Origin: Thermoanaerobaculia bacterium
Lineage (GTDB): Bacteria > Acidobacteriota > Thermoanaerobaculia > UBA5066
Assembly: GCA_038245905.1 (NCBI GenBank)
Contig: JBBRRY010000045.1
Span: 1-20,740, forward strand
Direction: 5' to 3'
DNA length: 20,740 nucleotides
Below the pieces are notes generated by a model that saw only the letters and a program-made list of their open reading frames with translations, made no database searches and was not told the DNA's origin. Positions 2,382 to 20,740 of the stretch are shown piece after piece (positions within the stretch are counted from its first letter, which is position 1; the number at the start of each line of letters is the position of its first letter). The translations under genes and the position numbers were made by a program.

Positions 2382-2443
2382 ACCGTCGCTCCCTTTTTGC
2401 CGCGCTCGCGCTCGCCCTTCTCGGGGCCGGGTTGGCGCGTGCG
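2378..2443 (+). other. N-terminal signal peptide of CDS3 (SPase I type)
   Basis: Basic n-region (MNRR), hydrophobic h-region (LFAALALALLGAGL), A-R-A cleavage motif, and no lipobox Cys. Confidence 0.85.
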
Positions 2444-5400: not shown

Positions 5401-8400
5401 CGCGTCCGTCTCGGACGGCCCGGGCTCAGCTCCGCCGGCGCCGGTAGTCACTCTGGACGGCGCGCCCTGGGGAGGCTCGCCGATCTCGGCCGAGGGGACG
5501 CACCTTCTCGCGGCGACCGTGACCGATTGCGCGGGTCACGCGGCATTCGTCCACGCCCTCTTCACGATCGACGTGACGCCGCCGCGGCTGCTCACGTTCG
5601 TGCCCGCCGACCAGGCGACACTGGGGGTCGCGGTCGCGTCCGTGTCCGGCACGTCGGATCCCGACCTCGCCTCGGCGACAGTCAACGGCGTTGCCGCTGC
5701 TGTCTCCGGCGGCGCGTTCGCCCGGACGCCGTTCCCATGGAAGGAAGGCGCGAACGCGCTGACGATCCAGCTCGTCGACCGTGCGGGCAATGCGGCGACC
5801 TACACGCGCAGCTTCACGGTGCGGACGATCGGGCCTTCCGTCGAGATTCTCGAGTCGGGCGCGCCGCTCGGTTCCGGCGCGAAATTCTTCCGCGCCGTGA
5901 CGCCGACCGTCCGGTCGAACGATCCCGCCGCGACGGTCACGGCGACGCTCAACGGCGCGGTGTTCGTCTCCGGCACGCCGGTAAGCGTCTCGGGCGACTA
6001 CGCGCTCGCGGCTACGGCGGCGGACGCGCTCGGCCACACGGCGACCGCGAACGCGTCTTTCAAGGTGGATCTCTCGCCGGGTCCGGAGGTCGACATCGCC
6101 TCTCCAGCGGACAGGTCCGTTCTCCCGGGCCCGACCGTCGCCGTTACGGGCACGGCGAGCGCGTCCGTCACGTCCGTCACCGTGAACGGGCGCATCGCGA
6201 CGCTCGCCGGTGCGACGTGGGGGCTGCCCGACCTCGTTCTCCCGCCCGACGTGCCGTCCGAGATCGTCGCGATCGCCTTCGACGCGGCAGGGCGCACGGC
6301 GTCGGCCACCCGCCAGGTCACCGTCCGAGCCTCCGGGCCGCAAATCGCAATCCTCGAGCCGGCCGACGGGGCGAAGACGAATCGCAAGAAGATCGACGTC
6401 GCGGGCGCGGTCGTGGGCGGCCCGTCCGCGACGGCAAACGGCAGCGTCGTCGTCGCGGGTCAGACGCTCTTGCTGGATGCTCTCGGGACGTTCCGTGCGA
6501 AGGACGTGGCCCTGCAGACCGGCGCGAACACGATCACGGCTTCCGCGACGGACCCGCTGGGCCGCACCGGCACGGCTTCGGTCACCGTCACGACCGACTC
6601 GGCGGCTCCCGGTATCGCGATCGCGGCGGACGGCCAGCCTCTTGCCGAGGGCGCGAGCTTCGCGCGGCCGTTCACGGTGCGCGTGACGATCACCGACGAC
6701 ACCCTGCCGCTCCCCGTTCCGGCGATCCGCCTCAACGGCCAGGACAAGGGAGCGACGGCGGCCGTGACGGACCTCCCGATCGCGCAGGCGGGCGGATACG
6801 TCCTTTCGGTCGTGGTGCGCGACGCGGCGGGCAACGAGAGCCGAGCCGATCGGAGCTTCGTCCTCGCCTCGGGCGGCTGCGCGGTCTCGGCCCTGGATCC
6901 CGGCGACGGCGCCGTCGTGGCGGCGCCGAAGGTGACGCTCAAGGGCCGGAGCGGTGACGCGGCGTCCGTCACGGTCACGTCCGCGGGCCAGACGTTTGCC
7001 GCTCAGCTCGCCGACGGCACGTTCGCGGCGGGCGACGTGCCGCTCGCAGCGATGGGCGACAACCCTCTCTCGATCGCATGCACGGACCGCGCGGGCGCCG
7101 TCTCGACCACGAACCTGAACGTCCGGCGTCTCCAGGACGGCGCGGGCCCGGTCGTGCGCATCGTTCAACCCGCCGGCGGCGCGCGCCAGACCGGCGGCAC
7201 AGTCACCGTGAGCGGCACAGTCTCCGATCCGGCGGCCGCCGTGACCGTGAACGGCGTCAAGGCGACGGTCGCGTCCGGCGGGTTCTCGACGGGTCCGCTG
7301 CCGCTCGTCGAGGGGCCGAACGTTCTCGCAGCTCGCGCCGTGGACGCGGCGGGCCGGAGCGGGGAAGACCGCGTCGTCGTCTTCCGCGACTCGGCCGCGC
7401 CGAAGGTCGCGATCACGTCGCCGCCCGACGGTGCGCACGTCGGCAAGCCCGGTTCCGGTCCAGTCGTCGTCAACGTCTCCGGCTTCGTCGACCTCACCAG
7501 CGAACCGAACCTCGCGTCCGTCGTCGTCGCGACGAGCGCAGGCTCCGTCACCGCGACGGTCGACGCCGACACAGGCGCTTTCTATGCGGGCGGCGTGCCG
7601 CTCGCGACGACGTCGCCTGGCGTGTCGCAGAGCGTGACCGCGACCGCGACCGACACGCTCGGCCAGAGCGTCACCGCGACGGTCGGCGTGATCTACGACC
7701 CGGCGGCGCCCGCGCTCGTCCTCGGGCAGCCCGTCGACGGCACGCGCTTCAGCGAGACCTCGCCTCCGTCGTTTGCAGCCTCCGGCGACGCCTGGGCGAA
7801 GGACGGCGCAATCGTCTCGATCAACGGTGGCGGCCTCGACGGCCTCACGTGGGACGCCCCCGCCGCCGACGGGCGCCGGCACGCGAGCTTCACGCCGCAA
7901 GTCACGATGCCCGCCACCGAGGGCCCGTTCGGCGTCATCGCGCGCGTCGAGGAGCCTTCCGGCGCGTATGCGAACGACAAGCGCCTCCTCTTCAAGGACG
8001 TCACGGCGCCCACGGTCGTCGACATGCAGCCCGCCGACGGTGCGAAGCAGGTCGACGCGAACGAGATCCCGCTCGTCCTCTTCAGCGAGAACGTCCGGCC
8101 CTCGTCGCTTTCGGCAGCGGACGGTTTGACGCTGACGCGCGTTGCGACGGGCGACAAGGCTGTCGGCACGTTCACGATCGCGGGCAGCGCGGTCGCGTTC
8201 GCGCCGGGCGCCGCAATGGTGCGCGGCGAGGCATACAAGTTCCGCGCGGGCGCGGGGGTCACGGACCTCGTCGGGCACCCTCTCGCGGCCGCGAAGGAAG
8301 TCCAGTTCACGGTCGCGGCCGTCGGAACCTCGGCGCCGCCCGTGCTCGACGCCCTGCCTCCGGTCGTCTGCGCGACGCAGCTCGTCGTCGCGGGCGCCGC

Positions 8401-11400
8401 GGTGCCCAACGCCTCCGTCCGAGTTCGCGACGCCGCGCTCTCCGTCAGCGGAAACGCCGACGCGGCCGGCCGCTTCGCCGTCACGATCCCGCTCTCGGGG
8501 AACGGCTGGCACGCCGTGCACGCCGCCGTCATCGACTCGGGCGGCACCGCCGGCCCCGAAGCGGCCGCCCTGTTCCGCGTGGACTGCAGCGCGCCGGCCG
8601 TCGTGGGTGCGACGTTCGACCGCGGATCCGGAAAGATCGCCGTGGTCTTTGCAGAGGCCATGAGAGCTTCGACCGTGACGGTCGGCGGCCCCGGCAGCGC
8701 GATCACGGTGTCAAAGGCCGACGACGCGACGAACGCCCCGCAAGCCGCGACGCTCACGCTTTCGACTGACGGCGCGACGGCGACGCTCGACCTCGGAAAC
8801 AGCCCCTCTATCTGGTGGCTGAACGCCTCCGTCCGTCTCTCGGTCGGCCCGCCGGCGACGGACGCGGCCGGCAACGTCATGACGGCCCCGTTCTCGACCG
8901 TGTTCTTCGCGGGCGGCGGGGGAGATCTCTCGGGCGGATTCCTCTCGGGCGCCGCGCTCGACGAGGAGAGCGGCCGGCCGCTCGCGGGCGCCGACGCGAG
9001 GCTTTACGCTTCCGGCGCCGCGCTGCCGGGCTCGGTTCCCGCGGTCGAGGTCACACCGGCGACGGCCTCCACGGTGACGGACGGCCGGGGCCGGTTCAGT
9101 CTCACGGGCGACATCGCCGCCGGGCGGTACGCGCTCGTCCTCTCGCGGACGGGTTACACACGCGCCGTGCGGCGGCTCGCGCTCGAGCCTGCCGTCGGCG
9201 CTGTGCCGTTCGGCAGCCGTCTCACGCCGCTCGCCGCGCAGGCGCCGTCGCTTCTCGCGGCGGCCGCCGGCGGATCCTTTGCGGGTCCCGCGGGCTCGAG
9301 CCTGACTGCCGACTTCGCGTCGAACGCGCTCGTCGCGGCGACGAGCCTTGGCGTGAGGCTCACGCCGCTCAGCGGGCAGGGCCTCCCTGAACCGCTTCCG
9401 CTCGGATGGACGCCGCTCGCGGCGGCGGAGCTGCGCCTGGTTCCGAACGGCGCCGGCGACGACGCGCTGCCCGAAGGCGCGGGCACGCCGTTCACGCCGG
9501 GCGGTGTCACGCTCACCCTGGCGCTCCCCGCGGGCATCCTCACGGCCGACCTCTACGCCGCGCGGTACGACGTCGTCGCGGGCGCGTGGCTCGCACTACC
9601 CCTTCCTGTCTTCGTCGCGGGCAGCAGCTCGACGCCGGATCGCGCGCGCGTAACGCCCACGGGCCCCGGGACGGTCGCGCTCATCGCGCCTGACGCCGAT
9701 CCCGCGACGCGGCCGGCCGTGATGCCTGTCTCTCTCGACGCGCCGCTCGTCGGTGTTGCTCTGCCGTCCACCGTGCCGACTCTGTCTGCGACGATCGCCC
9801 TCGACCCGCCCATCGTCTCGCCGATCGGCCGCGCGACGGCGCGCGTCCTCGCGAAGGCGTCCGACGGCGTGACGCCGTTCCCCAGCGGCCTCGCCGTTCA
9901 GGGCTACCTCGACGAGAAGCTCATTCTCTCGGGCGGCGCGGGCGAACTGTACGAGGCGCCGTTCAGCGCGGACCTCGTCCTCTACCACCCGCCGCTCTCC
10001 GCGGGCGACCTCGGCGGCGCGGCGCCGGGCGCGGTGGGCGCGCTCTCGTTCCGCATCTCACCCAGCCCGCGCGCGGCGCAGGTCCTCCTCGACACGGGCT
10101 ACGAGAACGTGCGCCTCTTCCCGTTCACGGACCAGCTCGAGCGTGGACAGGTGCTCGGCCCGGCGGGCGGCTCGGTGTCGACGGCGGACGGCGTCGAGCT
10201 TTTCGTGCCAGAGAGCGGCCTCGCACAGAAGACCGTCGTCTCCGCGCGGAAGCTCACGGCGGCGGAGCTGGCGGCGCTACCGCCTGTTTCCGGCTACGCG
10301 ACTGCTGCCGCCGTGCGCGTGAGCTTCTCGGGCGCGTCGCTCGCCCGCGCTGCGTCCCTCAGGCTCAACGCGCCAACCGGCCTGCCCGTCGACGCCGCCG
10401 ACGACCCGCGTTACGTCCTTGCGGTCCTCGTCGACCAGCCCGACGACGGCCGAGGCGCGTTCGCGAACGCCGTCTCGCGTGTCACCCTCCTGCCCGCGGC
10501 GGGCGCCGTGCCCGCGAGGCTCGTCGCGGCGCCCGAGGTCTCCGGCTCGCCGCTGCCGTTCCCGGGCGTCGCGGGAGAGGGCGTCTTCCTCTTCCTGCAC
10601 GCAAACGCGCCCATCGGCTTCGTGACCGGCCGCGTGGCGGCGCCGAACGGAGCGGGCATCGCGGGCTCACGCGTCACGGCCGCCGGCCTTGGCACGGCGA
10701 ACCTCTCCGTGCCCGGCGGCCCGTACGCCGTACCCGCGCCCGCGGGATCTCCCACGCTCACCGCTCTCCATCCCGTGCTCGGGCTCTCGGGTACGGGGCA
10801 GGTTCCGTCGCTTGCAAAGGGTCAGGTCGGGATGCTCGACCTCGTCCTCTCGCCTACGCCGCCCCAGATCCGTTCGCTCCAGCCCGCAAACGGCGCGACG
10901 GACCAGCCCGTCGGCTCGACCGTGGCGATCGTGTTCAGCGCGGCGCTCGATCCGGCAAGCGTCACTGCGGCGACGCTCTCCGTCTCGCTTGCCGACTCGG
11001 CGGGCGCGTCGACGGGACTCGTCTTCAGCGGCGCCATCGCGCTCTCGCCCGACAGGACGACCGTCGTCTTCACGCCAACGCGCCCGCTCCCACCCGGGCG
11101 GCGCATCGCCGCGCGATTCGTAGGAGGCGTGCGCGACGCGGCCGGCACGGCATACGGCGGACCGCTGCCGGTCGACTGGAGCTTCACGACCTCGACGCAG
11201 TTCGTCACGGGCGGCTCCGTGCATCCCGAGAAGATCCGCCTCCTCGTTCCGGTCAACGGCGTCGCCCGGGTGATCGGCGATCCCGGAGCGCTTCCCGCGG
11301 CGCTCTCAGGCACCACGCCGTGGTCCGCTTTCGCGGACGTCGACGGTCCCGTCGCGTGTCCGTCGGTCACGACCGTACCGGCGGACAGCGCCGGCGGCTT

Positions 11401-14400
11401 CACGCTGAACGCGGGCTGCCCACCGTCGTCCACCGTCACGTTTGCGAGCCGCGTCTACATCCACATCCTGGATCCCACCGGAACCGAGGCCGCGACATTC
11501 CGGCTCGGCCTCTTCACGACGCCCGACGGCAAGGGCTTCGTGGCTGTCCCGGGCGACGAGACTGTTTTCACCACCGCCGAAGGCGTCGAGGTCACGACGC
11601 CCGCGGCCGCGTTCGACACGCCCACGCTCGTCAAGGTCACGAAGCAGCCGCTCGACTCCCTCGCCGTCGCCCTGAATCCGGGCTTCGAGATGGGCGCGGT
11701 CCTCAACGTGGACTTCGACGGTACAGCGAAGGAGACGCTGCGCCTCCGAATCCCCGTCGTCACCGCGTCGCCGGTCGGCGGCCTCGTCTTCGCGGGCACG
11801 CCGTTCGAGACGCCGTGGGGCAGGAAGCTCAAGATTCTCGACGTCGGGCGCCTCGTGGACGACGGCAAGGGCGGCAAGCTCATCTCGACTGCGGAGGCGG
11901 ACCAGCCGGACGATCCGGCGCTCGTCGCGGGCGGGGCCTCGAGCGTTCGGACGGGCGGGAGAAAGGCGCAGGCGCTGCCGAAGAAGCTCCTCCAGACGAT
12001 CGCGGCCGAGTTCACGGCGCGGGCTACAGCGGGATTCATCTTCGGCGCCACGCTCGAGCTCGCGGCTATCACGGGGCATGTGGAGCCGGCGATCGTCGGG
12101 ACCACGTTCTTCATCCTCTACAACGCGCTCGCGGACGCCTTCATCTACCAGGCCATCGCACACAACTGGGACGGCCGCTACGTCCTCCCGAGCACGGGTA
12201 CCGCGTTCACGGTGGTGAAACGGGAGCTCGCCACCGGCTGGATCCTCGGACAAAAAGATTACGGTCCTGTCGCTCCGTCGCCCGGCCGGTTCGTGAATCT
12301 CGGGGAGCTCGAGCCGGGTTCCAGCGATCCACCCCGCCTCGTGGACGCGGCGCCGTTCCCCGTGATTCGTTTCAAGGCGCCGGCGGTTTCGACGGGTCAG
12401 GAGACGAACCTCCGGCTGCGGCTCGAGATGGAGGCAAACACGACGGACCAGGCGCTCGTGACCCTGCGGTCCGTCTCCGGGCTCGCGTTTGCCGACGGAA
12501 CCGTCGTCTCGCTCTACAACCTGACACAGGGAACGTCGGTGAAAGCGACGGTCTCGGGCGGCTCGTTCACGGCGGGCCCGGTCGCTGGGAAAGCCGGCGA
12601 CGATCTCCTCGCGCTCGTCCTGGCGTCGGACGTCGAGACCGACGGCCTTACCGATCTCACCTTCGAGTTCAGCCGTCCGCTGCAGAGCGTCGCGGATCCC
12701 CGGACACTCGTCGCCCTGACGGACGTGGAGACGGGAGCGCCCGTGGCGATGCAGGCCTTCCTCGAGGCCAGCTCCACGCGTCTTCGTGTCCAGCTCTACG
12801 GCGCGCTCGGGCGAGGGCGCGACTACAAAGTCGAGCTCTCGAGCATTTTCTCGGACAACGGGGTTGCCTACCATGCGTCCGATCCAACCGTCTTCACGTT
12901 CCGGACTCGCCGCGCCCAGCAGGATCCAATCGGAAGCACCCTCGGACCTGGCCTCTCGCTCGGCGACACGGACTCGGCGCGCGACGTCCTCAAATTCGGC
13001 AACCTCCTTCTCGTCGGCTCCGGTAACGGGCGGCTCCTCGCCGTGGACGCGTCCGACCCGGCGAAGCCGGTTCTGTTCGCGCGGCTCACGCCGTCGGCCG
13101 GGGACCAGGTCCGGGCCTTCGCGACGGATGGCCACAACCGACTCTTCTACAACGCGCGGTTCGGGTCGACCTGGGCCATCAAGGCGGTCCGGGTCGAGGA
13201 CGTCTGGAATGCCAGCTTGGCGAATTGCCCGTCCTCGGCCGGCGATCCCGGTTGGCTTGCCGCGCTCCCGTGCTTCCTGCCCGTGGACGGGGGCGTCAAG
13301 GCCGCGTTCGCTCTCGGCTCCTCCCTCGGGCTGACCGGGTCGGAATACCTTTCGCTGATGGGCGGGCTCGGGACCGGCATGCCGGCGGGCCTGGAGGCAC
13401 TCGCCGCGAACGACGTCGTCGGACCTTATCCCGCCGAGGAGTTCTTTCAGAGGATCGCGGGCTCGGGCACCTACCCGGTGGGACCGCCCTCGTCTCCCGA
13501 CCCCGGTGTCGACGTGACTCTCACCGTGAGCACGGCCGGCCACGTCTTCGACCGGGGCGTCGCCCCGTGCGGCGAGCCCTCGTATGACCGCAAGCAGCGC
13601 GTCACGGTCGACAACCTCACGACGGGGCAGAGCTGGTCGATCGACGTCGCGAACCCGTCCAACTCCGGGACGACGGCGAGCGTCCGCATCCATGCCCGCC
13701 GTCGCGATGTGATTCAGGTCCGCTACAACAAGACGGCCATCGGGTACGTCGCGATCGTCGGCAGCGGCGTGACGGTGGTGGACCTGAACCGCTTCTACGA
13801 TTCGCCGTTGCCTTCGGGTTCGGCGAACCAGATCAACCGGGGCGAGTGCCAGAGGCGGCTCGGCACTTACGAAGGCGCCGACGCGACGTTCGGACCTTGC
13901 TCGGGGGCCTCCCCGACCAGCCTCTCGAACACGCCCGCGCTTGCCGTGGTGCCGGGCCATGCCGAAAGCGCCTCCATCGACGTGTTTTCGGTCCTCACGC
14001 ATTTTGGAGCCGGGAACCTCGTCTCGGATGCAAACGCGCCGGGCGCGCTGCAGGCCGTGGAGATGCGATGCCTCAGGGACGCGGTCCCGTCCGTGCCGCC
14101 CGCGGCGGCCTATCGGGCCGCGGCCATCGCGCTCGGAACGACGTGGATGGACGTCGGCGCGGTCGCGGGTTCCTCCGGGAAGTTCACGAAACCGAACCCG
14201 GCGCCGCCGCCAACCGAACTGAACGGGGACCTCCTCTTCTACTCGCTCGGCCCCGCCGGCGTCGCCGTTTTCGACGTCACGTTCCGGCCGACGATGAACT
14301 TGATCGGGCGGTTCTGGAGGAAGGATCACTCGGTCTACCGGCTCGCGACGGACCGGGCGGGGAAGCGCCTTTTCGCCGGGGGCCAGGACAAGGACGGCAA

Positions 14401-17400
14401 GGCGATCATCGACGTCTGGGACATCGGGCGGGCGAACGGCGGACCCAGCAGCGACGGGAGCTATCCGCCCTCCGTGGATTCGGTAGATCCCCGACTGCTC
14501 TTCACGCTCAATGCGCCATGGGACACGAACCACCTCGGGCTCGACGAGGACACGGGGCTCCTCTATACCTGGGGCTCGCGCGCGGACGGGAAGACCGGCG
14601 GCTTCGTCCTCGCGACACGCGATCCGCAGTTTGTGTTCAGCGGCCTCTTCCGTCCCGTTGGCGAGACGCGGGACCCGATTGCCGGCGGCCCGCCCCTTCC
14701 CAGCGCCCAGCGAACGATCGACAAACTCACACCGCTCATACCGCTTGGCGTCGCCATGCGCGTCCTGCCGAAGGATGAAGCGGACCCGGAGAAGGCGAAG
14801 ACCGACGAGCGGGCGGCGACCGCCGCTTTCAAGCTCCGCGTCGCGCTGCCTGGCGTGCTGAAGGAGAAGCTCTACGCGAGGGTCCAGTCGCTCCGCGCGC
14901 TGCCGGACGAGCGCCTGCTCGCGCGCGAGAACGTCGGGCCTTTCGTCGCCGCACCGGGCGGCGACGGCTGGCCGGAGCGGGACGTGTCGATCACGCTCCG
15001 CCGGCTCGTGCCCGCGGGAGCACCGACGGCGGAGAAGCTCAAGCCCCCCTACAACCTGTACGAGTCGGACGAGGTCATCCTCCTAATCGCCGACCCGCGC
15101 GCGCGGGCCGACTACTGGAAGGGGAAGCAGACGCTCGCCCCGCCGGCGACGGCCGACGAAAACACGCAATGCCGGCGCTGTGGCCGACCGTCCTACCTGC
15201 CCGTCAAGGCGGACGACCCGACGCTCAAGGTGAAGGAGCTGCTCGCGGGCGGCCCGTGGATCCGGGCGTTCCTCGCCGAGCCGCCGGGCGGTGACGCCGA
15301 CACGCGCGCGGCGCTCGATTACTTTGACTCGACCGAGGACAACTACCCGAGACCTGCCGGTGCCGTCCAGTCGCTCGGCTTCGCCGACGAGGTCCCATCG
15401 CCCGTGCAGATCGCGCTCGCGGAGCCCGCGCTCAACGCGGCGTCATGGAGCGCCGAGGCCGGAGCGAGCGTTTCGCTCGTGTCGGGCGAGGCATTGCTCG
15501 CGGCGACGGACCACGCCGTGGAGGGCCGCGGCGTCGGGTTCGTGTTCGACCGCACGTACCGCTCGGGCGTCCTCGGCTATGGTTCGCTTGGAGCCGCGGG
15601 CTGGGGCTCGTCGATGTTCGCGCGCCTGCGCCTCCTTCCGGCCACGAAGGAGGTCGAGCTCCACGACGGCAGCGGCCACGTCTTCAGATTCTCGCCGCCG
15701 GTGGAAGGCTCGTGCGCACTGCCGGCGCTGCCGGGGCCGACCCGCGACGTACCGACGCACGAACTGGACGGCGGCTGGTGCGTCCCCAGAGGCCTTTATC
15801 TGAAGCTGGACGTTGTCGGCGAGGGCGATTCGTACCGCCTCCTGGGGCGCAACCACGACACGATGCTTTTCGACTCGTCGGGCCGCCTCGTGCAGCTCTC
15901 CGACCGCATTCGCCATGGCGCGTCCGACCCGAAGAAGCAGGGCAACACGCTGCAGCTGTTCTACGACGGCGCGGGCTTCCTCATGGGCGCAGAGGACGAG
16001 ATGGGGCGGTCCTACCGATTCACGTACGACAAGGAGCCGCTCCTCGCGGGCGGCGACCCGAACCCGAAGTACGCTCTTCTGAAGACCGTCGAGGACTTCG
16101 CGACGCCCCCGCGCGTCGTGACGTTCCGGTTCGACGACGAGCGGAGACTCACGGAAGTCCAGCTGCCCGCCGTCACGAACCCAGACGCCGAGTTCAAGCA
16201 CGACGCGCCCATCGTCCGATACAAGTACGAGTACGCGAAGACGCTGGCGTCCACCGCACCCGCCAACGGACCGGACTTCTCGAAGCTGAAGCTCACGAGC
16301 TTCCTCCTGCCCGACGCAGACGCCCCACGAATCGCCTTCGACTACGCTCCAGCGACGGGGCGTGTCACCACGCTCACGCTGCCGCCCAGCGCCGTGGGCG
16401 GCACCGGCACGGCGTGGACCCTCCGTTACGTGGATCCGTCGTCCGACGCGGGTCCGACCAAGACCGTGTCCGTCGTGGCGCCCTGGAGTTTCAGCCTCGA
16501 CTACGCCCTTGATGCCGGCCGCATCACGACCCTGACCGAGAAGGTCGAGACGGTGGGCCCGGCCGACGGGGACATTCCTGACGTGGCCGTTGGGCCGCCC
16601 GTACAGACGCTCACGACGAACTACTCTTATCTCGAGGACGGACGTCTCGATTTCGTCGAGTGGCCCGACAAACACCTCACGCGGCAGAAGTACCCGGACG
16701 GCGGGGTGCGGCTCGAGCTCGCCAACGTCGTAGAGGCGACGGCCGAGCCGGGCGGGGCGCCGACGGGCCCGGCAAAGCACGGTGTTCCCGCCACGAAGGT
16801 CACGTCCTTCGTTGACAACATTGCGCAGACGATTCTCGATCCGCTCTTGCGGTCGACGACCTCCGCCGTCGCGACTGCGAACGGCTTGGCAAATCCCGCT
16901 TTCGTGGGCAATGACGACCCCGGCAAGCCCCAACCCATCCAGCCCACGGTCGGCGGGACCGCGTCATACGACCCCTACGGCCGCCTTGCGACGTTCCAGG
17001 GCAACGGCACGAACAGCACGCAAGCAGGGACGAAGTTCGGTAAGGACGCGCAGGGGCGCGAAAACGCGGGCTTCGCGACGGAGATCGCGCGGGGCGAGGT
17101 TAAGGAAACGCTCGAGTACGACACGGACGGCACGGGCCCACGTGGCAACGTGACGCACCGGACGACGAGTTTCAAGACGGAGAGCAAGTTCGATTACGAC
17201 GAGTGGGACCGCACGATCCGCGAAGAGACGGGTCTCAGCAAAGGCGATCTCGAGCAGGTGACGGACGCCATCGTCACGCGCGGCTACGACGCTTCCGGCC
17301 ACCTCGCGGTCGAGCGGCGGAAGCAGGCGGGGGTCGGAACGGGAACAGTCGAGACGCGCTACACCTACAACGACCGCGAGCAGCTCCTCAGCGTCACGGT

Positions 17401-20400
17401 CGACAACCTCGCGTCGGAGAGCCCCGGAGCCGCCGCCGGCCTGAAGGGAACGACGGCGTACTCCTACGACTCGTCGGGCCGCGTCTCGGAGGTCAGGTCA
17501 CCTCAGGGCGTGATCACGCACTACGAGTACGACTCGGCCGGGCGCGTCAAGAGCGAGCGCGTGGGCCCCACGGGGGGAATTCGTAGTCGCGGCTACGACG
17601 CGATGGGGCGGCTCGTCTGGAGGACCGACGGCGACGACGGCTTCTGGCGCGGGCGGTACGACGCCTGGGGCCGGCTCTTCCAGGAGGACCTGCCCACGGG
17701 CGCCTCGCTCGAACGTGAGTTCGACGCCGCGGGCGGCGTCCTCCGCGAGACGCTCTTCACCGGCCTTCCGGGCCTCGTCGCCTCGACGAAGATCACCGAG
17801 ACGAAGAAGCACGTCACGAGCTTCGGCGCGGTCGACCTCGTCGACGAGCTGCTCACGACCGGACCCGAGACGCACCGGATCACGAAGAAGACGTACGACG
17901 GCTCCGGCCGGCTCGTGACGGTGACGAGCGGACCGACCGATGCGATCCAGCGGACGGATCTCACGGCGGCATACGACGCCGCGGGCCGCTCGACGAGCCA
18001 GACCGACGCCGGCCAGAACGTGACGGAGTTCAGGTACACGAATGCAGCGCCCTGGCCCACGCGGATGACATTCACGGAGGCGGTCCCCGGAAAGGCTCCG
18101 GTGCAAACCACGTATTCGGAGTACGGCCGCGACGCGTTTGGGCGCGTAGTGGGCGAGAAGCGGTATGGGGGCAGCAGCGTCCTTGTCTCGGAGACCATGA
18201 CGAAGTTCGACCAGAGCGGCAACGTCCGGTCGGTCAAGACTGTCATCGGCAACGAGACCACTTTCACGTACGACGGCGCCGGCCGCCTCCTGACCGAGGC
18301 GAGGCCGACGAACGGCACGACCCAGTACGGCTACGACCTCGACGGGCGCGTGAGGCACCGCGTGTCGGGCAGCATCAGCGCGCGCCCGAACAAGACGGAC
18401 TACGGTTACGACACGTCGGGGCGCCTCGACAAGGTCGACCGTCCCGACTCGACGAGCGAGTCCTTCAAGTACAACGGCGACGACACCGTGCAGACCTGGA
18501 CCACGCGCTCAGGCATCGTCGTCACGAACCGGTACGACGCCGCCAACCGGCTCCTCTCGCGCACGCCGGCAAGGTCCTCGAACTCGAAGGCGCCCGCCGT
18601 CGACGGCGGCGACAGGTACGCCTACGACGAAGGCTCGCGCCTGAAGTCCGTCGACAGATGGGACGAGCCCGCGGGGGCAGCTGCGTTCCTGTCGAACCTT
18701 TCCGCGCGCGCCGCGTTCGCACAGTACGACGCGGCGGGCCGTCCCGGCGAGGAAAGGATCGGGGCGCGCTCACCGTTGACGCGCGTCTACGACACGTGGT
18801 CTCGCGAGGCTGACGTTCGCGTTCCCGACGGCGTTGGCCGCCAGGCCGCGAGCGCGTTCACGGGCTACCACCGCGAGTTCGACTCGCTCGACCGTCTCTT
18901 GAGCCTCTCGGCAGTCGGCGATACCGCGCTCGGCGCGCGGTGGGATTGGGGCGGCACGTCGCGTCTCTACGGCGTCACGACATCGAGTTCCCTCGGCACG
19001 GCGCACCGCTACAGCTTCCTCGGTTCCTACGGTCCGCAGCCCGGCGGCTCCGTCACGACTCCGTGGCAGCTCGGCGTGGTGTCGGTCGGCTCCTCTGCGG
19101 CGGGCGATGCGGCCGTTGATGCTCCCGCCTCGGTTTGGGGCCAGATGGCCTACGGCTACAAGACGGGCGACGCAACCAAGCGTGGGCGCGCCGTCATGGG
19201 AGCCGCGCCAGGCCGGGTGGGCGTCTTCGCGAACCAGGGCTGGCGCTTCACGTCCGACGACGCGCTGCGCCTGACTTCGGCCGAGGCGGGCAGCGGCAGC
19301 ATTGACGGCTCGGATCCGGCCGTCATAAGCGAGAAGTTCACGGCCGTCTACGACATCGGCGACGAGGTGAAGGTCCTCTCGCGCGAGAAGTCGGCTGTCC
19401 GGAGCGCCACGTTCGTCCCGGGCGTCGAAGGCCGCATCGAATCTCGCAACGGCATCGCGTTCGATCACGACCCCGAGGGCCGCCGTCTCGCGGACGATCG
19501 CTACACCTACGCCTGGGGCTGGCGGGGTGAGCTCCTGTCGGTCAGCGTCAAGGATTGCTGGCCCGCCGAAAACGGCGAGTCCCATGCTCCCGACTGCCCC
19601 TCGGGCTTCACGCGCCCGCGTTTTGCCGGCCACAAGGTCCTCTACGAATACGATGCCCTGGGCAGCCTCCTCGCCCGTGAGGAACGCGGCGAGCCGGCGT
19701 CGCCGGGCGACGAGGCCACGCGGCCCTTCTACGAAAGGCGCGAATACCTTTGGGACGGTACTCGCCTGCTGGCCGAGGCGGGCCGCGCCGCCGACGGCGG
19801 GCTCCTGTGGAGGAAGTCCTACGTCCCCGGAGCCAGCGGCCTCGACGACGCTGTCCAGCAGCGTGTCGAGACCTACGACGTCACGGGAGCCGAAGCCGCG
19901 CCTCCGAAGCTCTATGCCTTCCTGCGCGACGATCAGAACACCGTCCTCGGTCTCGTGGAAGAGCGCGACGGAGCCGACCCTAAGAACCCGCCCATTCCCG
20001 TCCGGTACCACTACAGCCCGTACGGGGAAGCCCACGCCGAGACGGCGACCGAGCTCGTGAGGGTGACGTTCGAGGATTCACTCCACAGCGTCACCAGTCC
20101 GGACGGCACGACGGCCAGCCAGACGACGGCCGCTGATGCGCGAGATGGGGGCCTCAGGATCTTCCTCACCCTCCCGGTCGACCCGTCGGTCCTGGCCACG
20201 GCCCTGACGGTCGAGAAGAGGAACGCGGACGGCACGTGGGGAGCGCTGACTGCCGCCGAGCTCGCTCTCGGACAACATCCCGGCCAGCCGGACGAGATCG
20301 AAGTCATCGCGGTAAACGGCTGGAAGCAGGGCGCGACTTACCGCGTGAGGATCAACGGCCTCAAGGACACGCTCGGCAGAACCGCGACGTCGTCGTCGCT

Positions 20401-20740
20401 CGTTACGTGGGACGTCCCGGCCAGCGACGCTGTCCTCCTCGACCGGAACTTTCCGCTGGTCTACGAATGCGCGGTGGCGTCAGCAGACAGCGTCAGCGGT
20501 GCGTTCCCCGGCGGCCAGAACCTCCTCTTCCAGGGCCTCTGGACCGACCCCGTCACCGGCATCGCCTACGCCAGAAACCGCTGGTACGACGCGAGGAATG
20601 TGGGATGGCTCTCCCAAGACCCTCTCGGCGACCGCGACTCCGTCAACCTCTACGGATTCGTCGGAGCAAGGCCGCACGAGAAGACCGATCCGTTGGGACT
20701 GGGAATCCTCGATGACACATTCGGCTGGGTGAAGGAGAAG
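2378..20740 (+). CDS. Giant (>6121 aa, 3'-truncated) signal-peptide-bearing, multi-Ig-domain Rhs/YD-repeat protein; putative polymorphic toxin/adhesin
   Basis: Frame +2 from GTG 2378 has no stop to the window end in my manual translation. Consistently, the ORF track lists no terminated frame +2 ORF after 2378. It begins MNRRSLFAALALALLGAGLARA and ends WYDARNVGWLSQDPLGDRDSVNLYGFVGARPHEKTDPLGL|GILDDTFGWVKEK. It has many YDxxGR repeats. Confidence 0.96.
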   Translation, partial: MNRRSLFAALALALLGAGLARAADAPFAIGQPLARRAIFGCAGVTVQDGSTVRSEGVSSYAAKEGQAHVASNGDILVTSRATILGDATAGPGHLATVAPDAAVSGLTTPAAAAVDCAPVDLVRLTASLVSNDNAKIPKTALGRSALTGATGDALVLDAHDSVTLPAGTFVFSSIDLSERAHVKVAGDARVLVTGNVRITGNSFLNPAGRAFRLRLFVLGTRVTVESLSTVGAFVIAPSAEVFVGSESRVLGTIFAKTVTVREASAVIRLVDDTPPVLTLIEPTGTGLPSLAAVRVRGFARDPETAVISATVNGRVVSLESDGSFDTTMDVTASSEVRLDAENAMGLVATVRVNLCSGPPTVAVLSPADGSLVGARIGSVSGTFRGATSIAVNGRPAVLGDGTFRLDGFDFGPDGVVVVAVVASSSCAQSSVASVFTLDTAPPVVTIDTPAPGSVLASSPVTVSGTFVEPNLAEITVNGVAAVISGNRFTAVVPIPLGPSALVAEGRDRLGRVGVSARVNVTLDTQSASVVITSPISGALTADGTATVTGTASVPGLASVRVAGRAAAVTGTSFTVSGVPLAEGDNRLVAEAIDSASRSFFSQPVFVTLDSLPPDVALDASSFPLLTRLSTVNVSGTAADPHLGAVTVNGVAAVVSAGRFTAANVPLAEGANSVRAHAIDTLGHAADSASATVDRDTQAPAVTITSPTLNAQLTASSVTVSGTAVDPHLAGVTVNGVAASVSNGRFTALLTLSEGDTTLVANASDTLGNAALSAGVPVTVDTIAPIVSIDSPADPLTGSASVTVTGTVVEPHLLSLTVSGVPAFVSGGRWVATNVPLVEGTQRLTAVAVDTFGHRAESSQVEYRLDSTPPVLTMDAPAAGSAACRAPGPPVTVSGRVYGRAGVRPVVTLGVQPAGSAAQSFTAALDAAGTTWTVPAVDLGSADGAATLTATTSDSLGHDVRVLRTFRIKASSPSLSLLLDGNAMPGSAVGAVAAPGETPVLFGRALLPRASVSDGPGSAPPAPVVTLDGAPWGGSPISAEGTHLLAATVTDCAGHAAFVHALFTIDVTPPRLLTFVPADQATLGVAVASVSGTSDPDLASATVNGVAAAVSGGAFARTPFPWKEGANALTIQLVDRAGNAATYTRSFTVRTIGPSVEILESGAPLGSGAKFFRAVTPTVRSNDPAATVTATLNGAVFVSGTPVSVSGDYALAATAADALGHTATANASFKVDLSPGPEVDIASPADRSVLPGPTVAVTGTASASVTSVTVNGRIATLAGATWGLPDLVLPPDVPSEIVAIAFDAAGRTASATRQVTVRASGPQIAILEPADGAKTNRKKIDVAGAVVGGPSATANGSVVVAGQTLLLDALGTFRAKDVALQTGANTITASATDPLGRTGTASVTVTTDSAAPGIAIAADGQPLAEGASFARPFTVRVTITDDTLPLPVPAIRLNGQDKGATAAVTDLPIAQAGGYVLSVVVRDAAGNESRADRSFVLASGGCAVSALDPGDGAVVAAPKVTLKGRSGDAASVTVTSAGQTFAAQLADGTFAAGDVPLAAMGDNPLSIACTDRAGAVSTTNLNVRRLQDGAGPVVRIVQPAGGARQTGGTVTVSGTVSDPAAAVTVNGVKATVASGGFSTGPLPLVEGPNVLAARAVDAAGRSGEDRVVVFRDSAAPKVAITSPPDGAHVGKPGSGPVVVNVSGFVDLTSEPNLASVVVATSAGSVTATVDADTGAFYAGGVPLATTSPGVSQSVTATATDTLGQSVTATVGVIYDPAAPALVLGQPVDGTRFSETSPPSFAASGDAWAKDGAIVSINGGGLDGLTWDAPAADGRRHASFTPQVTMPATEGPFGVIARVEEPSGAYANDKRLLFKDVTAPTVVDMQPADGAKQVDANEIPLVLFSENVRPSSLSAADGLTLTRVATGDKAVGTFTIAGSAVAFAPGAAMVRGEAYKFRAGAGVTDLVGHPLAAAKEVQFTVAAVGTSAPPVLDALPPVVCATQLVVAGAAVPNASVRVRDAALSVSGNADAAGRFAVTIPLSGNGWHAVHAAVIDSGGTAGPEAAALFRVDCSAPAVVGATFDRGSGKIAVVFAEAMRASTVTVGGPGSAITVSKADDATNAPQAATLTLSTDGATATLDLGNSPSIWWLNASVRLSVGPPATDAAGNVMTAPFSTVFFAGGGGDLSGGFLSGAALDEESGRPLAGADARLYASGAALPGSVPAVEVTPATASTVTDGRGRFSLTGDIAAGRYALVLSRTGYTRAVRRLALEPAVGAVPFGSRLTPLAAQAPSLLAAAAGGSFAGPAGSSLTADFASNALVAATSLGVRLTPLSGQGLPEPLPLGWTPLAAAELRLVPNGAGDDALPEGAGTPFTPGGVTLTLALPAGILTADLYAARYDVVAGAWLALPLPVFVAGSSSTPDRARVTPTGPGTVALIAPDADPATRPAVMPVSLDAPLVGVALPSTVPTLSATIALDPPIVSPIGRATARVLAKASDGVTPFPSGLAVQGYLDEKLILSGGAGELYEAPFSADLVLYHPPLSAGDLGGAAPGAVGALSFRISPSPRAAQVLLDTGYENVRLFPFTDQLERGQVLGPAGGSVSTADGVELFVPESGLAQKTVVSARKLTAAELAALPPVSGYATAAAVRVSFSGASLARAASLRLNAPTGLPVDAADDPRYVLAVLVDQPDDGRGAFANAVSRVTLLPAAGAVPARLVAAPEVSGSPLPFPGVAGEGVFLFLHANAPIGFVTGRVAAPNGAGIAGSRVTAAGLGTANLSVPGGPYAVPAPAGSPTLTALHPVLGLSGTGQVPSLAKGQVGMLDLVLSPTPPQIRSLQPANGATDQPVGSTVAIVFSAALDPASVTAATLSVSLADSAGASTGLVFSGAIALSPDRTTVVFTPTRPLPPGRRIAARFVGGVRDAAGTAYGGPLPVDWSFTTSTQFVTGGSVHPEKIRLLVPVNGVARVIGDPGALPAALSGTTPWSAFADVDGPVACPSVTTVPADSAGGFTLNAGCPPSSTVTFASRVYIHILDPTGTEAATFRLGLFTTPDGKGFVAVPGDETVFTTAEGVEVTTPAAAFDTPTLVKVTKQPLDSLAVALNPGFEMGAVLNVDFDGTAKETLRLRIPVVTASPVGGLVFAGTPFETPWGRKLKILDVGRLVDDGKGGKLISTAEADQPDDPALVAGGASSVRTGGRKAQALPKKLLQTIAAEFTARATAGFIFGATLELAAITGHVEPAIVGTTFFILYNALADAFIYQAIAHNWDGRYVLPSTGTAFTVVKRELATGWILGQKDYGPVAPSPGRFVNLGELEPGSSDPPRLVDAAPFPVIRFKAPAVSTGQETNLRLRLEMEANTTDQALVTLRSVSGLAFADGTVVSLYNLTQGTSVKATVSGGSFTAGPVAGKAGDDLLALVLASDVETDGLTDLTFEFSRPLQSVADPRTLVALTDVETGAPVAMQAFLEASSTRLRVQLYGALGRGRDYKVELSSIFSDNGVAYHASDPTVFTFRTRRAQQDPIGSTLGPGLSLGDTDSARDVLKFGNLLLVGSGNGRLLAVDASDPAKPVLFARLTPSAGDQVRAFATDGHNRLFYNARFGSTWAIKAVRVEDVWNASLANCPSSAGDPGWLAALPCFLPVDGGVKAAFALGSSLGLTGSEYLSLMGGLGTGMPAGLEALAANDVVGPYPAEEFFQRIAGSGTYPVGPPSSPDPGVDVTLTVSTAGHVFDRGVAPCGEPSYDRKQRVTVDNLTTGQSWSIDVANPSNSGTTASVRIHARRRDVIQVRYNKTAIGYVAIVGSGVTVVDLNRFYDSPLPSGSANQINRGECQRRLGTYEGADATFGPCSGASPTSLSNTPALAVVPGHAESASIDVFSVLTHFGAGNLVSDANAPGALQAVEMRCLRDAVPSVPPAAAYRAAAIALGTTWMDVGAVAGSSGKFTKPNPAPPPTELNGDLLFYSLGPAGVAVFDVTFRPTMNLIGRFWRKDHSVYRLATDRAGKRLFAGGQDKDGKAIIDVWDIGRANGGPSSDGSYPPSVDSVDPRLLFTLNAPWDTNHLGLDEDTGLLYTWGSRADGKTGGFVLATRDPQFVFSGLFRPVGETRDPIAGGPPLPSAQRTIDKLTPLIPLGVAMRVLPKDEADPEKAKTDERAATAAFKLRVALPGVLKEKLYARVQSLRALPDERLLARENVGPFVAAPGGDGWPERDVSITLRRLVPAGAPTAEKLKPPYNLYESDEVILLIADPRARADYWKGKQTLAPPATADENTQCRRCGRPSYLPVKADDPTLKVKELLAGGPWIRAFLAEPPGGDADTRAALDYFDSTEDNYPRPAGAVQSLGFADEVPSPVQIALAEPALNAASWSAEAGASVSLVSGEALLAATDHAVEGRGVGFVFDRTYRSGVLGYGSLGAAGWGSSMFARLRLLPATKEVELHDGSGHVFRFSPPVEGSCALPALPGPTRDVPTHELDGGWCVPRGLYLKLDVVGEGDSYRLLGRNHDTMLFDSSGRLVQLSDRIRHGASDPKKQGNTLQLFYDGAGFLMGAEDEMGRSYRFTYDKEPLLAGGDPNPKYALLKTVEDFATPPRVVTFRFDDERRLTEVQLPAVTNPDAEFKHDAPIVRYKYEYAKTLASTAPANGPDFSKLKLTSFLLPDADAPRIAFDYAPATGRVTTLTLPPSAVGGTGTAWTLRYVDPSSDAGPTKTVSVVAPWSFSLDYALDAGRITTLTEKVETVGPADGDIPDVAVGPPVQTLTTNYSYLEDGRLDFVEWPDKHLTRQKYPDGGVRLELANVVEATAEPGGAPTGPAKHGVPATKVTSFVDNIAQTILDPLLRSTTSAVATANGLANPAFVGNDDPGKPQPIQPTVGGTASYDPYGRLATFQGNGTNSTQAGTKFGKDAQGRENAGFATEIARGEVKETLEYDTDGTGPRGNVTHRTTSFKTESKFDYDEWDRTIREETGLSKGDLEQVTDAIVTRGYDASGHLAVERRKQAGVGTGTVETRYTYNDREQLLSVTVDNLASESPGAAAGLKGTTAYSYDSSGRVSEVRSPQGVITHYEYDSAGRVKSERVGPTGGIRSRGYDAMGRLVWRTDGDDGFWRGRYDAWGRLFQEDLPTGASLEREFDAAGGVLRETLFTGLPGLVASTKITETKKHVTSFGAVDLVDELLTTGPETHRITKKTYDGSGRLVTVTSGPTDAIQRTDLTAAYDAAGRSTSQTDAGQNVTEFRYTNAAPWPTRMTFTEAVPGKAPVQTTYSEYGRDAFGRVVGEKRYGGSSVLVSETMTKFDQSGNVRSVKTVIGNETTFTYDGAGRLLTEARPTNGTTQYGYDLDGRVRHRVSGSISARPNKTDYGYDTSGRLDKVDRPDSTSESFKYNGDDTVQTWTTRSGIVVTNRYDAANRLLSRTPARSSNSKAPAVDGGDRYAYDEGSRLKSVDRWDEPAGAAAFLSNLSARAAFAQYDAAGRPGEERIGARSPLTRVYDTWSREADVRVPDGVGRQAASAFTGYHREFDSLDRLLSLSAVGDTALGARWDWGGTSRLYGVTTSSSLGTAHRYSFLGSYGPQPGGSVTTPWQLGVVSVGSSAAGDAAVDAPASVWGQMAYGYKTGDATKRGRAVMGAAPGRVGVFANQGWRFTSDDALRLTSAEAGSGSIDGSDPAVISEKFTAVYDIGDEVKVLSREKSAVRSATFVPGVEGRIESRNGIAFDHDPEGRRLADDRYTYAWGWRGELLSVSVKDCWPAENGESHAPDCPSGFTRPRFAGHKVLYEYDALGSLLAREERGEPASPGDEATRPFYERREYLWDGTRLLAEAGRAADGGLLWRKSYVPGASGLDDAVQQRVETYDVTGAEAAPPKLYAFLRDDQNTVLGLVEERDGADPKNPPIPVRYHYSPYGEAHAETATELVRVTFEDSLHSVTSPDGTTASQTTAADARDGGLRIFLTLPVDPSVLATALTVEKRNADGTWGALTAAELALGQHPGQPDEIEVIAVNGWKQGATYRVRINGLKDTLGRTATSSSLVTWDVPASDAVLLDRNFPLVYECAVASADSVSGAFPGGQNLLFQGLWTDPVTGIAYARNRWYDARNVGWLSQDPLGDRDSVNLYGFVGARPHEKTDPLGLGILDDTFGWVKEK
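2477..3187 (+). other. Beta-solenoid domain, ice-binding (DUF3494)/DUF7305-like
   Basis: Motifs AIFGCAGVTV, VASNGDILV..ATILGDATAGPG, VTLPAGTFVFSSIDL, VLVTGNVRITG, LRLFVLG and FVIAPSAEVFVG..VLGTIFAKTVTV occur in the order typical of this fold. Confidence 0.65.
3191..7996 (+). repeat. Tandem array of about 18 bacterial Ig-like domains (about 85-105 aa each)
   Basis: Units open with D-T/S-x-x-P-x-V-x-I-x-x-P and contain VSG...VTVNG...F...VPLxEGxNxLxAxAxDxxG. Unit starts at 3689, 3944, 4202, 4460, 4715 and 4970 give a 255/258-nt period. Confidence 0.9.
7997..12910 (+). other. Mixed domain block: about four SbsA-type Ig (Big_5), two to three carboxypeptidase-regulatory-like and three ZU5-like domains
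   Basis: Big_5-like at about 7997 (DVTAPTVVDMQPADGAKQVD..VLFSENV), 8582, 10856 (PPQIRSLQPANGATDQPVGSTVAIVFSAALDPASV..VVFTPTRPL..VRDAAG..WSFTT) and 12326. CarboxypepD_reg-like at about 8936 (LSGAALDEESGRPLAGA..TDGRGRFSL..GRYALVLSRTGY), 10615 and possibly 12065. ZU5-like at about 9260, 10145 (LGPAGGSVSTADGVELFVPESGL) and 11530 (GVEVTTPAAAF). Confidence 0.7.
12977..14620 (+). other. LVIVD/YVTN-like beta-propeller with large loop insertions
   Basis: Blade motifs: ARDVLKFGNLLLVGSGNGRLLAVDASDPAKPVLFARL, VRAFATDGHNRLFY, GYVAIVGSGVTVVDL, LLFYSLGPAGVAVFDVT, VYRLATDRAGKRLFAGG..IIDVWDI and HLGLDEDTGLLYTWG. Confidence 0.7.
15461..15691 (+). other. DUF6531-like Rhs shell entry domain
   Basis: GASVSLVSGEALLAATDHAVEGRGVGFVFDRTYRSGVLGYGSLGAAGWGSSMFARL...VELHDGSGHVFRF matches the VxxxxGE..TD..G..FxRTYRS..GxxGxGW pattern. 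Confidence 0.8.
15850..20029 (+). repeat. YD/RHS repeat array (cocoon shell)
   Basis: Many units, e.g. FDSSGRLVQLSD, YDPYGRL, YDEWDRTIRE, YDSSGRVSEV, YEYDSAGRV, YDAMGRLV, YDAWGRL, YDGAGRLL, YDLDGRV, YDTSGRL, YDAANRLL and YEYDALG. Confidence 0.93.
20003..20701 (+). other. RHS repeat-associated core (aspartyl autoprotease), split by an inserted domain
   Basis: RYHYSPYGE, then a 163-aa insert, then NLLFQGLWTDPVTGIAYARNRWYD...WLSQDPLG...NLYGFVGARPHEKTDPLGL. The PxxxxDPxGL terminus is at 20672-20701. Confidence 0.93.
20702..20740 (+). other. Start of the hypervariable C-terminal cargo (putative toxin); identity not determinable
   Basis: GILDDTFGWVKEK follows DPLGL directly; the window then ends. 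Confidence 0.8.

Follow-up and report, generated by a model that had tools for sequence, protein, structure and literature searches.

In the Rhs, Tc and teneurin proteins of solved structure, the C-terminal plug of the YD-repeat shell is uninterrupted and counts as the part of the machine that does not vary. The shell of Rhs1 comprises residues 420-1262 and its plug residues 1263-1357, the latter being described in the structural account of PMC8636562 as 'deeply embedded' and as closing the barrel. Where PMC8636562 and PMC8765631 deal with the solved structures, the C-terminal plug lies deep in the last ring of the barrel and immunoglobulin-like (Ig-like) plugs sit outside at the opposite end; the motif PxxxxDPxGL is given in the corresponding part of PMC8765631. 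The window analyzed here is an entire contig of 20,740 nucleotides (nt) from a Thermoanaerobaculia bacterium (JBBRRY010000045.1; G000:C45 in our numbering), and it carries a giant Rhs polymorphic-toxin gene whose Rhs-associated core is broken by 163 codons. Our results support that these codons encode a folded Ig-like domain, a distant relative of the Big_5 and SbsA-SbsC domains, inside the Rhs-associated core. The insert is real, conserved and limited to one lineage. What is new is the Ig domain within an Rhs core, the Rhs repeats, the core and the cleavage motif being those already known from Rhs proteins. A whole lineage tolerates and retains a folded domain at the place where the chain passes from the shell to the plug.

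The interrupted core and the fold of its insert

The YSPYGE of the window protein has its last base at nt 20029, and NLLFQG has its first at nt 20519. The stretch enclosed by the two, 163 codons long (amino acids (aa) 6000-6162, nt 20030-20518, plus strand), agrees with the count in the initial annotation of this DNA, and it includes all three strings that had been quoted there as hallmarks of a Big_5 domain. The scan with TIGR03696, proposed there as a check, matched only positions 14-76 of the 76-position model, after the insert (nt 20513-20701, plus strand; 50.4-53.6 bits against a cut-off of 32.5), the insertion point being model position 13/14. An uninterrupted core, with positions 1-76 in about 75-97 residues, was not found in the window protein. 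As a control for the class, the TIGR03696 core was found in 85 of 121 genomes of the same class, and 135 of the roughly 150 best listed matches (our own count) start at model position 1-3 and span about 219-291 bases. This implies that the canonical core is uninterrupted, as the initial annotation had assumed for Rhs proteins. The tallies of this control and of the insert searches in 121 and 401 genomes described below include two unpublished genomes (G004 and G104), on which nothing else reported here depends.

The part of the core that follows the insert would comprise the plug and an aspartyl autoprotease and ends in the cleavage motif PHEKTDPLGL (nt 20672-20701). The core aligns to the solved structures 8qjc and 8uy4, and the aspartates of RWYD and SQDP, together with PHEKTDPLGL, align with 8qjc. 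In Rhs proteins the two aspartates of the core have a catalytic role. Since the insert lies N-terminal to the cleavage motif, it would remain on the carrier after self-cleavage if this runs as in other Rhs proteins. Past the motif, the translation gives the first 13 codons of the variable C-terminal toxin (nt 20702-20740, plus strand), the rest being lost at the contig end.

Both junctions of the insert are bridged by a Logan contig of 8770 bases (run X1), which spans positions 19700-20629 of the window with zero differences; run X1 may be the source sample, and the Logan contig represents a second assembly, not independent DNA. No step in GC (guanine plus cytosine) content was observed at the junctions. 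After about position 20600 (20600-20740) the depth of run X1, about 50 before, reaches 140-540, and several contigs part there, with different continuations; judging from these reads, the conserved end of the core is the repeat that broke the assembly. An intein, a HINT domain or a mobile insert was also considered as the nature of the 163 codons and was rejected; HINT families were detected only in the toxin regions of relatives.

Structure prediction, another check proposed at the outset, indicated that the insert is not unstructured but folds as an Ig-like beta-sandwich with predicted local distance difference test (pLDDT) values of about 88-98. The AlphaFold2 model of 262 aa, based on an alignment of 64 relatives and including short flanks, reached pLDDT 97-98 over model residues 31-170, nearly all of which were in strands. 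The distant Big_5-like sandwich proper, of about 100 residues, occupies nt 20144-20437 (about aa 6038-6135, plus strand). It is preceded by an N-terminal connector (nt 20030-20143, aa 6000-6037, plus strand, beginning with AHAETATEL), which forms strands of high pLDDT in the models, and followed by a C-terminal connector (nt 20438-20518, aa 6136-6162, plus strand), which has the conserved FPGGQ at its end and pLDDT 88-93 in a model of 1200 aa. The conserved connectors, AHAE..PEL and R.FP..YES...GG.FPGGQ, return both ends of the domain to the insertion point. Among 31 aligned inserts, the connectors and FPGGQ were the best conserved parts, and insert residues E4, E8, Q31, F159, P160 and G162 were invariant.

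The 1200-aa AlphaFold2 model, which covers the last two thirds of the shell, the insert and the core, had a mean pLDDT of 90.4 and a predicted template modelling (pTM) score of 0.87 and resembled solved Rhs cocoons (E about 1e-36). The blocks of the insert had pLDDT 88-95 within this model, which together with the pTM suggests that the insert would hold a fixed orientation on the shell. The pLDDT of the core was about 50-60 when modelled without the shell and 76-95 with it; in the models it is the shell that raises the confidence of the core, and the Ig domain does not.

We compared the insert by VIA-align with 48,161 chains, only 13 of which gave Z ≥ 8. A bacterial alpha-2-macroglobulin MG domain (4zjg_A) was matched with Z 10.7 and a root-mean-square deviation (rmsd) of 2.8 over 102 residues, SbsC with Z 10.3 (4uj6_A; rmsd 2.8, 100 residues, 20% identity) and Z 10.1 (2ra1_A; rmsd 2.7, 98 residues), and CopC proteins with Z 8.8-9.7. 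Sequence searches of the PDB gave a best E of 0.26 for the insert and no match for its profile. No family was assigned to the insert alone by Pfam or NCBIfam, nor by Pfam when flanks of 30 aa were included, and the scan with the Big_5 model PF13205 that the initial annotation had called for gave no match either. On the stretch homologous to the insert, PF13205 matched 15 of the 69 relatives scanned at E ≤ 0.01, 11 of them below the gathering score and 4 above it (P0090, 38.6 bits; P0093, 34.4; P0094, 32.0; P0107, 26.1). When the profile of 31 inserts was compared by hhalign with the two Big_5 domains of the same protein, the probabilities were 77% (E 2.1e-5) and 51% (E 1.5e-4), whereas the control, a Glucodextran_B Ig-like domain of this protein, gave 0.2%. 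These profiles provide moderate support for a similarity specific to Big_5. The nearest ESM Atlas clusters of the insert are also Big_5 (score 0.86), which serves as a lead only.

The insert shares 21% identity in hhalign with the earlier Big_5 domains of the same gene, and its direct comparison with them gave at best 30% identity over 141 aa in BLASTP (E 0.002, composition correction off) and a phmmer domain E of 0.043. A recent duplication of an N-terminal Big_5 domain was rejected, the direct similarity being too weak. The interpretation given in the initial annotation holds in part. Its assignment of the insert to the Big_5 kind is supported: the fold (Z 10.3 to SbsC) and the four homologues above the Big_5 cut-off speak for it, and the failure of Pfam on the window's copy speaks against it. 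The likeness to the earlier Big_5 domains that had been noted stands at the level of the family (hhalign), not at that of close identity.

Distribution of the insert and forms without a shell

A phmmer search of the insert against 1.84 billion cluster representatives yielded 126 proteins at E ≤ 1e-3; of these, 61 remained at E ≤ 1e-10 and 2 at E ≤ 1e-30. P0123 was dropped, as it matched over 21 query residues and was absent on a local phmmer rerun, which left 125 clusters. An Rhs core was present within 25 residues after the domain in 115 of the 117 clusters with at least 45 residues downstream, the remaining 2 looking frameshifted. Upstream, phmmer found the last shell segment directly before the domain in 73 of the 85 clusters with at least 45 residues there; of the 12 without such a match, 7 have the same motifs when inspected by eye and 5 have unrelated sequence up to TPYGEAHAE. 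The insert is 156-183 aa long (median 168, n = 90), is 27-63% identical across 30 named loci and is single-copy in its own genome. Long members share the order N-terminal Big_5 or Glucodextran_B, DUF6531, RHS repeats, insert, core and toxin, and DUF6531 lies 1438-1504 aa ahead of the insert in 8 long relatives, with which the window agrees. The C-terminal domains of relatives include HNH-type nucleases (AHH, WHH, GHH, LHH), a deaminase, a colicin DNase, Ntox8, Ntox15 and PT-HINT, and the median length past the cleavage motif is 272 aa (n = 88). The search for other split cores suggested by the initial annotation has therefore shown that they are common in one lineage and not unique to this gene.

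We scanned a single genome for each species with the seeds PYGEAHAE and F[QE]GLWTDP, which bias the result to close kin, and found 59 loci, 32 of which match the whole insert (our count). Whenever the title of a whole-insert locus names a lineage, this is Thermoanaerobaculia, Acidobacteriota or the Thermoanaerobaculia family Ca. Sulfomarinibacteraceae, and three titles from other phyla match the post-insert core only. With a single-sequence query the insert was found in 7 of 121 class genomes, namely its own genome, 5 of 12 others of the family and 1 of 14 of another family, and a profile search with 8 candidates scored per genome found it in 2 of 401 phylum genomes; that these searches did not find it in the other genomes of the two sets does not amount to its absence there. 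Two divergent loci were observed in addition. L065 (G075:C52:94400-96300), from another family of the class, has a divergent insert at the same site of a 6737-aa frame, with a whole-region hhalign probability of 99.5%, much of which comes from the flanks. L068 (G005:C45:1500-2900), likewise from another family of the class, has two divergent Ig-like stretches that immediately precede the core. In neither locus does Pfam recognize Big_5.

The initial annotation had expected that the insert would split model matches to the core and leave this class under-annotated. This was not the case: the TIGR03696 match is shortened, not lost, and since it passes the cut-off in all 19 family members tested, beginning at position 12-18 in 17 of them, the class is still called Rhs (P0002, for instance, is labelled by JGI as an RHS repeat-associated protein). 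The unannotated part is the Ig domain, which is unnamed by Pfam and NCBIfam.

The same domain is also found in small proteins of about 450-645 aa that have no shell (loci including L069-L071 and L074; G014:C8, G014:C10, G048:C10). P0107 (645 aa), P0060, P0035, P0090, P0093, P0094 and P0096 consist of a signal-peptide-like N-terminus, two Ig domains, FPGGQ, core positions 14-76 with PxxxxDPLGL, and a toxin. Two genomes that belong to the same genus as the window contribute loci L069-L071, which have the same shell-less order with two Ig domains, and L069 has an in-frame stop 24 codons upstream of its start; P0048 and P0051 represent the shell-less form with one Ig domain. RHS_repeat gave no match in the shell-less members scanned, and the four shell-less members compared with TIGR03696 matched it at positions 14-76 (one at 14-75), all above the cut-off. 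The shell-less gene of G048, in which PF13205 scores 35.7 bits, encodes a C-terminal LHH nuclease and is followed by a gene of SUKH-1 (SMI1_KNR4), a standard immunity family. In a tree of 123 Ig segments the shell-less forms are placed, among shell-bearing ones, in two or more clades with good support; the tree has a midpoint root and weak deep branches, and it does not tell which form arose first.

Orphan modules also occur; some start at PYGE, others within the Ig domain, and others carry some shell at their beginning. At L008 (6076-6561 and 10132-10617), L007 and L009 tandem modules were observed, in which the main gene is followed by a small open reading frame (ORF) and then by an orphan of 1057 aa, where about 360 aa of shell precede a complete Ig insert, a core and a toxin; in another genome, an orphan about 15 kb downstream starts inside the Ig domain. 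L002 (G000:C19:71349-73071, minus strand), located where a contig ends, is an orphan module from an Rhs C-terminus, whose homology to the window starts only from GWLSQDP (84% nt identity, 102 bases); a 300-aa frame of no known family comes next and then a 191-aa ORF, a candidate immunity gene. Among the ORFs around the shell-less genes and the candidate toxins and immunity proteins of L007 and L002, Pfam recognized SUKH-1, LHH and, downstream in L007, a protein kinase gene, and nothing else.

The shell-less forms and the orphan modules thus indicate that the Ig domain, the half-core and the toxin travel together as one cassette. It is a possible reading, which we hold only tentatively, that these three parts (the half-core being positions 14-76) form a self-sufficient, portable secreted-toxin cassette. 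The aspartyl autoprotease of the shell-less proteins would then act without a cocoon to fold in, the Ig domain would supply a platform or targeting function, and the giant Rhs proteins would have gained or donated the cassette by recombination. If this were true, Rhs self-cleavage and toxin release would be uncoupled from encapsulation. A half-core without a shell raises the question whether the plug and the protease need the cocoon.

Placement and possible role of the Ig-like domain

The explanation that we prefer takes the Big_5-like insert at core position 13/14 for an external binding or anchoring cap at the protease pole. The insert is placed where the chain would turn from the YD shell to the inward-spiralling plug and the aspartyl autoprotease, the boundary that in solved Rhs proteins separates the strip of sheet from the plug. 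The Ig domain is predicted to lie outside the cocoon, capping the protease pole, and could be a binder or an anchor to the surface of the target or of the producer; it would not be part of the cleavage chemistry. Placement and role are what we infer here, and the explanation as a whole is in our judgement about evenly poised between being right and being wrong. In all 10 long relatives compared, the identity of the Ig core (29-61%) was lower than that of the last shell segment (50-68%) and that of the core (49-89%), which may reflect a peripheral, exposed position. As a cap, the domain would resemble the external Ig-like N-terminal plug of the T6SS (type VI secretion system) effector Rhs1 and the adhesive domains found near toxin modules; where Zhang et al. 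2012 (PMC3482391) treat such architectures, lectin-type domains among RHS repeats or near the toxin are suggested to boost contact with the target cell. The insert raises the question whether the protease pole can bear a functional surface module.

Several points weigh against an external cap, or against the evidence on which it draws. The low conservation of the Ig core can reflect relaxed constraint instead of exposure. The conserved GW, YRV and LxDxxGR look structural for Big_5, and neither a binding partner nor a ligand site was identified for the insert. Foldseek with the 262-aa model gave nothing at E ≤ 1e-3 against the PDB, its best match being the Ig-like part of TssM (E 1.1e-3), and no match of PF13205 (gathering score 23.6 bits) to the insert of the window protein was obtained even at E ≤ 10. 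The contig stops 13 codons past the motif and thereby cuts off the toxin and whatever immunity gene may follow, and the signal peptides were judged by eye alone.

The domain might instead be mainly a folding platform or regulator of the half-core, keeping the plug strands in place or setting the moment of the aspartyl self-cleavage, without any part in binding. The direct fusion of the Ig domain to core 14-76, maintained always and even in the shell-less forms, is in line with such a role, as are the connectors and FPGGQ being the best conserved parts and the low pLDDT (about 50-60) of core plus Ig domain modelled without the shell. However, canonical cores work without an Ig domain, as the uninterrupted majority of the class matches and the insert-free solved Rhs proteins illustrate, the high confidence of the core in the models comes with the shell, and the Ig core evolves faster than the core that it is supposed to regulate. 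We consider a domain that is mainly such a platform or regulator rather unlikely.

That the Ig domain resides in the lumen of the cocoon, where it would extend the plug or be a partner to the unfolded toxin, appears decidedly unlikely, even though the plug that follows it is embedded in the barrel according to the Rhs1 description in PMC8636562, the Ig-like FN-plug of teneurin reaches into the shell as depicted in PMC8765631, and the shell is long here (about 1450 aa). The cargo of these proteins is already large, as the median length past the motif indicates, and in Rhs1 a toxin of 16 kDa fills a cavity of about 28,000 cubic angstroms, by the figures in PMC8636562. Moreover, the same domain is present where no cocoon exists, and the Ig core is the least conserved C-terminal segment.

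We regard it as very unlikely that the insert is a historical by-product, a domain of little function left when a shell gene recombined with a free Ig-core-toxin cassette. The scattering of shell-less forms over at least two well-supported clades among shell-bearing ones and the start of orphan homology at or inside the insert would fit such a history, but an open, foldable domain has been kept at 27-63% identity in 30 named loci and in 125 clusters, at a stable length (156-183 aa, median 168). Finally, an assembly chimera or an unstructured linker, which might be suspected as the contig stops 222 bases downstream in a repeated region, is already refuted by the second assembly crossing both junctions without differences, by the same layout in many independent records and by the pLDDT of 88-98 of the insert.

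The host gene, its neighbours and known systems

The reading frame of the giant gene is free of stops from position 2033 to the contig end (2033-20740, plus strand; 6236 codons). Its start is likely to be the GTG at 2378, which would give VNRRSLFAALALALLGAGLARA, a signal peptide as judged by eye, and the protein is probably exported via Sec. With this start the gene extends over 2378-20740 on the plus strand and is truncated by the contig end. Pfam matches in the protein comprise Glucodextran_B (10 stretches), Big_13, Big_5, Big_3_3, Big_6, DUF6531 and RHS_repeat. The stalk, at positions 2378-11000, was observed to contain ten Glucodextran_B-type repeats and matches to Big_13, Big_3_3, Big_5, Big_6 and DUF7305. 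Between this Ig-rich stalk and DUF6531, Pfam assigns no family at E ≤ 0.01 to about 1400 residues (positions about 11200-15460, aa about 3060-4470). DUF6531 (PF20148, E 2.8e-09; positions 15464-15691, aa 4478-4553, plus strand) marks the start of the Rhs region. The shell of YD/RHS repeats follows at 15692-20029 on the plus strand (RHS_repeat PF05593, E 4.8e-26; TIGR01643, E 6.2e-27), with its final hairpin RYHYSPYGE at nt 20003-20029. Going by its domains, the gene product is a polymorphic toxin of more than 6100 aa that combines an Ig-rich stalk with a shell of about 1450 aa and an exchangeable toxin at the C-terminus.

Two ORFs lie upstream on the plus strand. ORF-A (1-1512), open at the contig start and without a Pfam family at E ≤ 1e-4, is a conserved upstream neighbour that adjoins the giant Rhs frame in 3 of the 4 relatives searched. 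In G108 and G100 its matches fall within open frames of 5628 and 6295 aa, and there may be a second giant gene upstream of the Rhs gene. ORF-B (1296-2381, 361 aa) is conserved directly upstream of the giant gene and syntenic in G112, G108 and G100; its stop, as read from the sequence, overlaps the GTG at 2378. Pfam gives no family for ORF-B, and the ESM Atlas points to DUF4412 (score 0.91), again as a lead only.

Among the described systems, a T6SS Rhs effector would be expected to differ in its N-terminus: no PAAR or VgrG-linked N-terminus was found in the Pfam scan of the window protein and 10 long relatives, T6SS genes in the genome not having been searched. Similarly, the Pfam scan of the window protein found none of the SpvB or beta-propeller parts of TcB type that belong to the BC component of Tc toxins. 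The claim in the initial annotation that no described Rhs core has such an insert was confirmed within the sources covered: comparison with the PDB revealed none among solved Rhs structures, and the full-text literature yielded neither an account of an Rhs core that contains an Ig domain nor one of Rhs proteins from Thermoanaerobaculia, subscription journals and supplements being outside the scope. The terms 'Ig-like', 'inserted' and 'RHS core' have no occurrences in the text of PMC3482391 that was searched, and where 'Ig-like' is used in the Tse15 paper (PMC11461821) it denotes VgrG.

The insert shares its fold with the Big_5/SbsA-SbsC domains of S-layer proteins (PF13205; 4UJ6 and 2RA1, Z 10.1-10.3, rmsd 2.7-2.8, 98-100 residues, 20% identity) and has the motif YxVxV...LxDxxG in common with Big_5. 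It differs from them in that its similarity is below anything that Pfam reports and in its extra connectors, which bring both ends to one point. The polymorphic toxins that Zhang et al. 2012 describe in the relevant part of PMC3482391 also have an extra, probably adhesive domain near the toxin module, as in the window. In the N-terminal plug of T6SS Rhs1 and the FN-plug of teneurin, as portrayed in PMC8636562 and PMC8765631, an Ig-like domain likewise caps the opening of a YD barrel. Those plugs, however, are at the N-terminal end, before the shell, whereas the window insert is at the C-terminal protease end, inside the core, and the likeness is one of description only.

The likeness to the Tc toxin TcdB2-TccC3 is confined to the shell and the core. 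With the canonical Rhs core as a whole (TIGR03696; RhsA 7Q97, P. laumondii Rhs1 7PQ5, S. bongori Rhs 8QJC, Tse15 8UY4 and TcdB2-TccC3) the window protein has the YD shell in common, the residues of RWYD...QDP...PxxxxDPxGL align, and a variable toxin after the motif is also found in the window's relatives. The delivery part of the window protein, an Ig-rich stalk behind a signal peptide recognized by eye, is unlike the PAAR, VgrG-linked or Tc-type N-termini, and of all these cores only that of the window is broken, by 163 residues at position 13/14.

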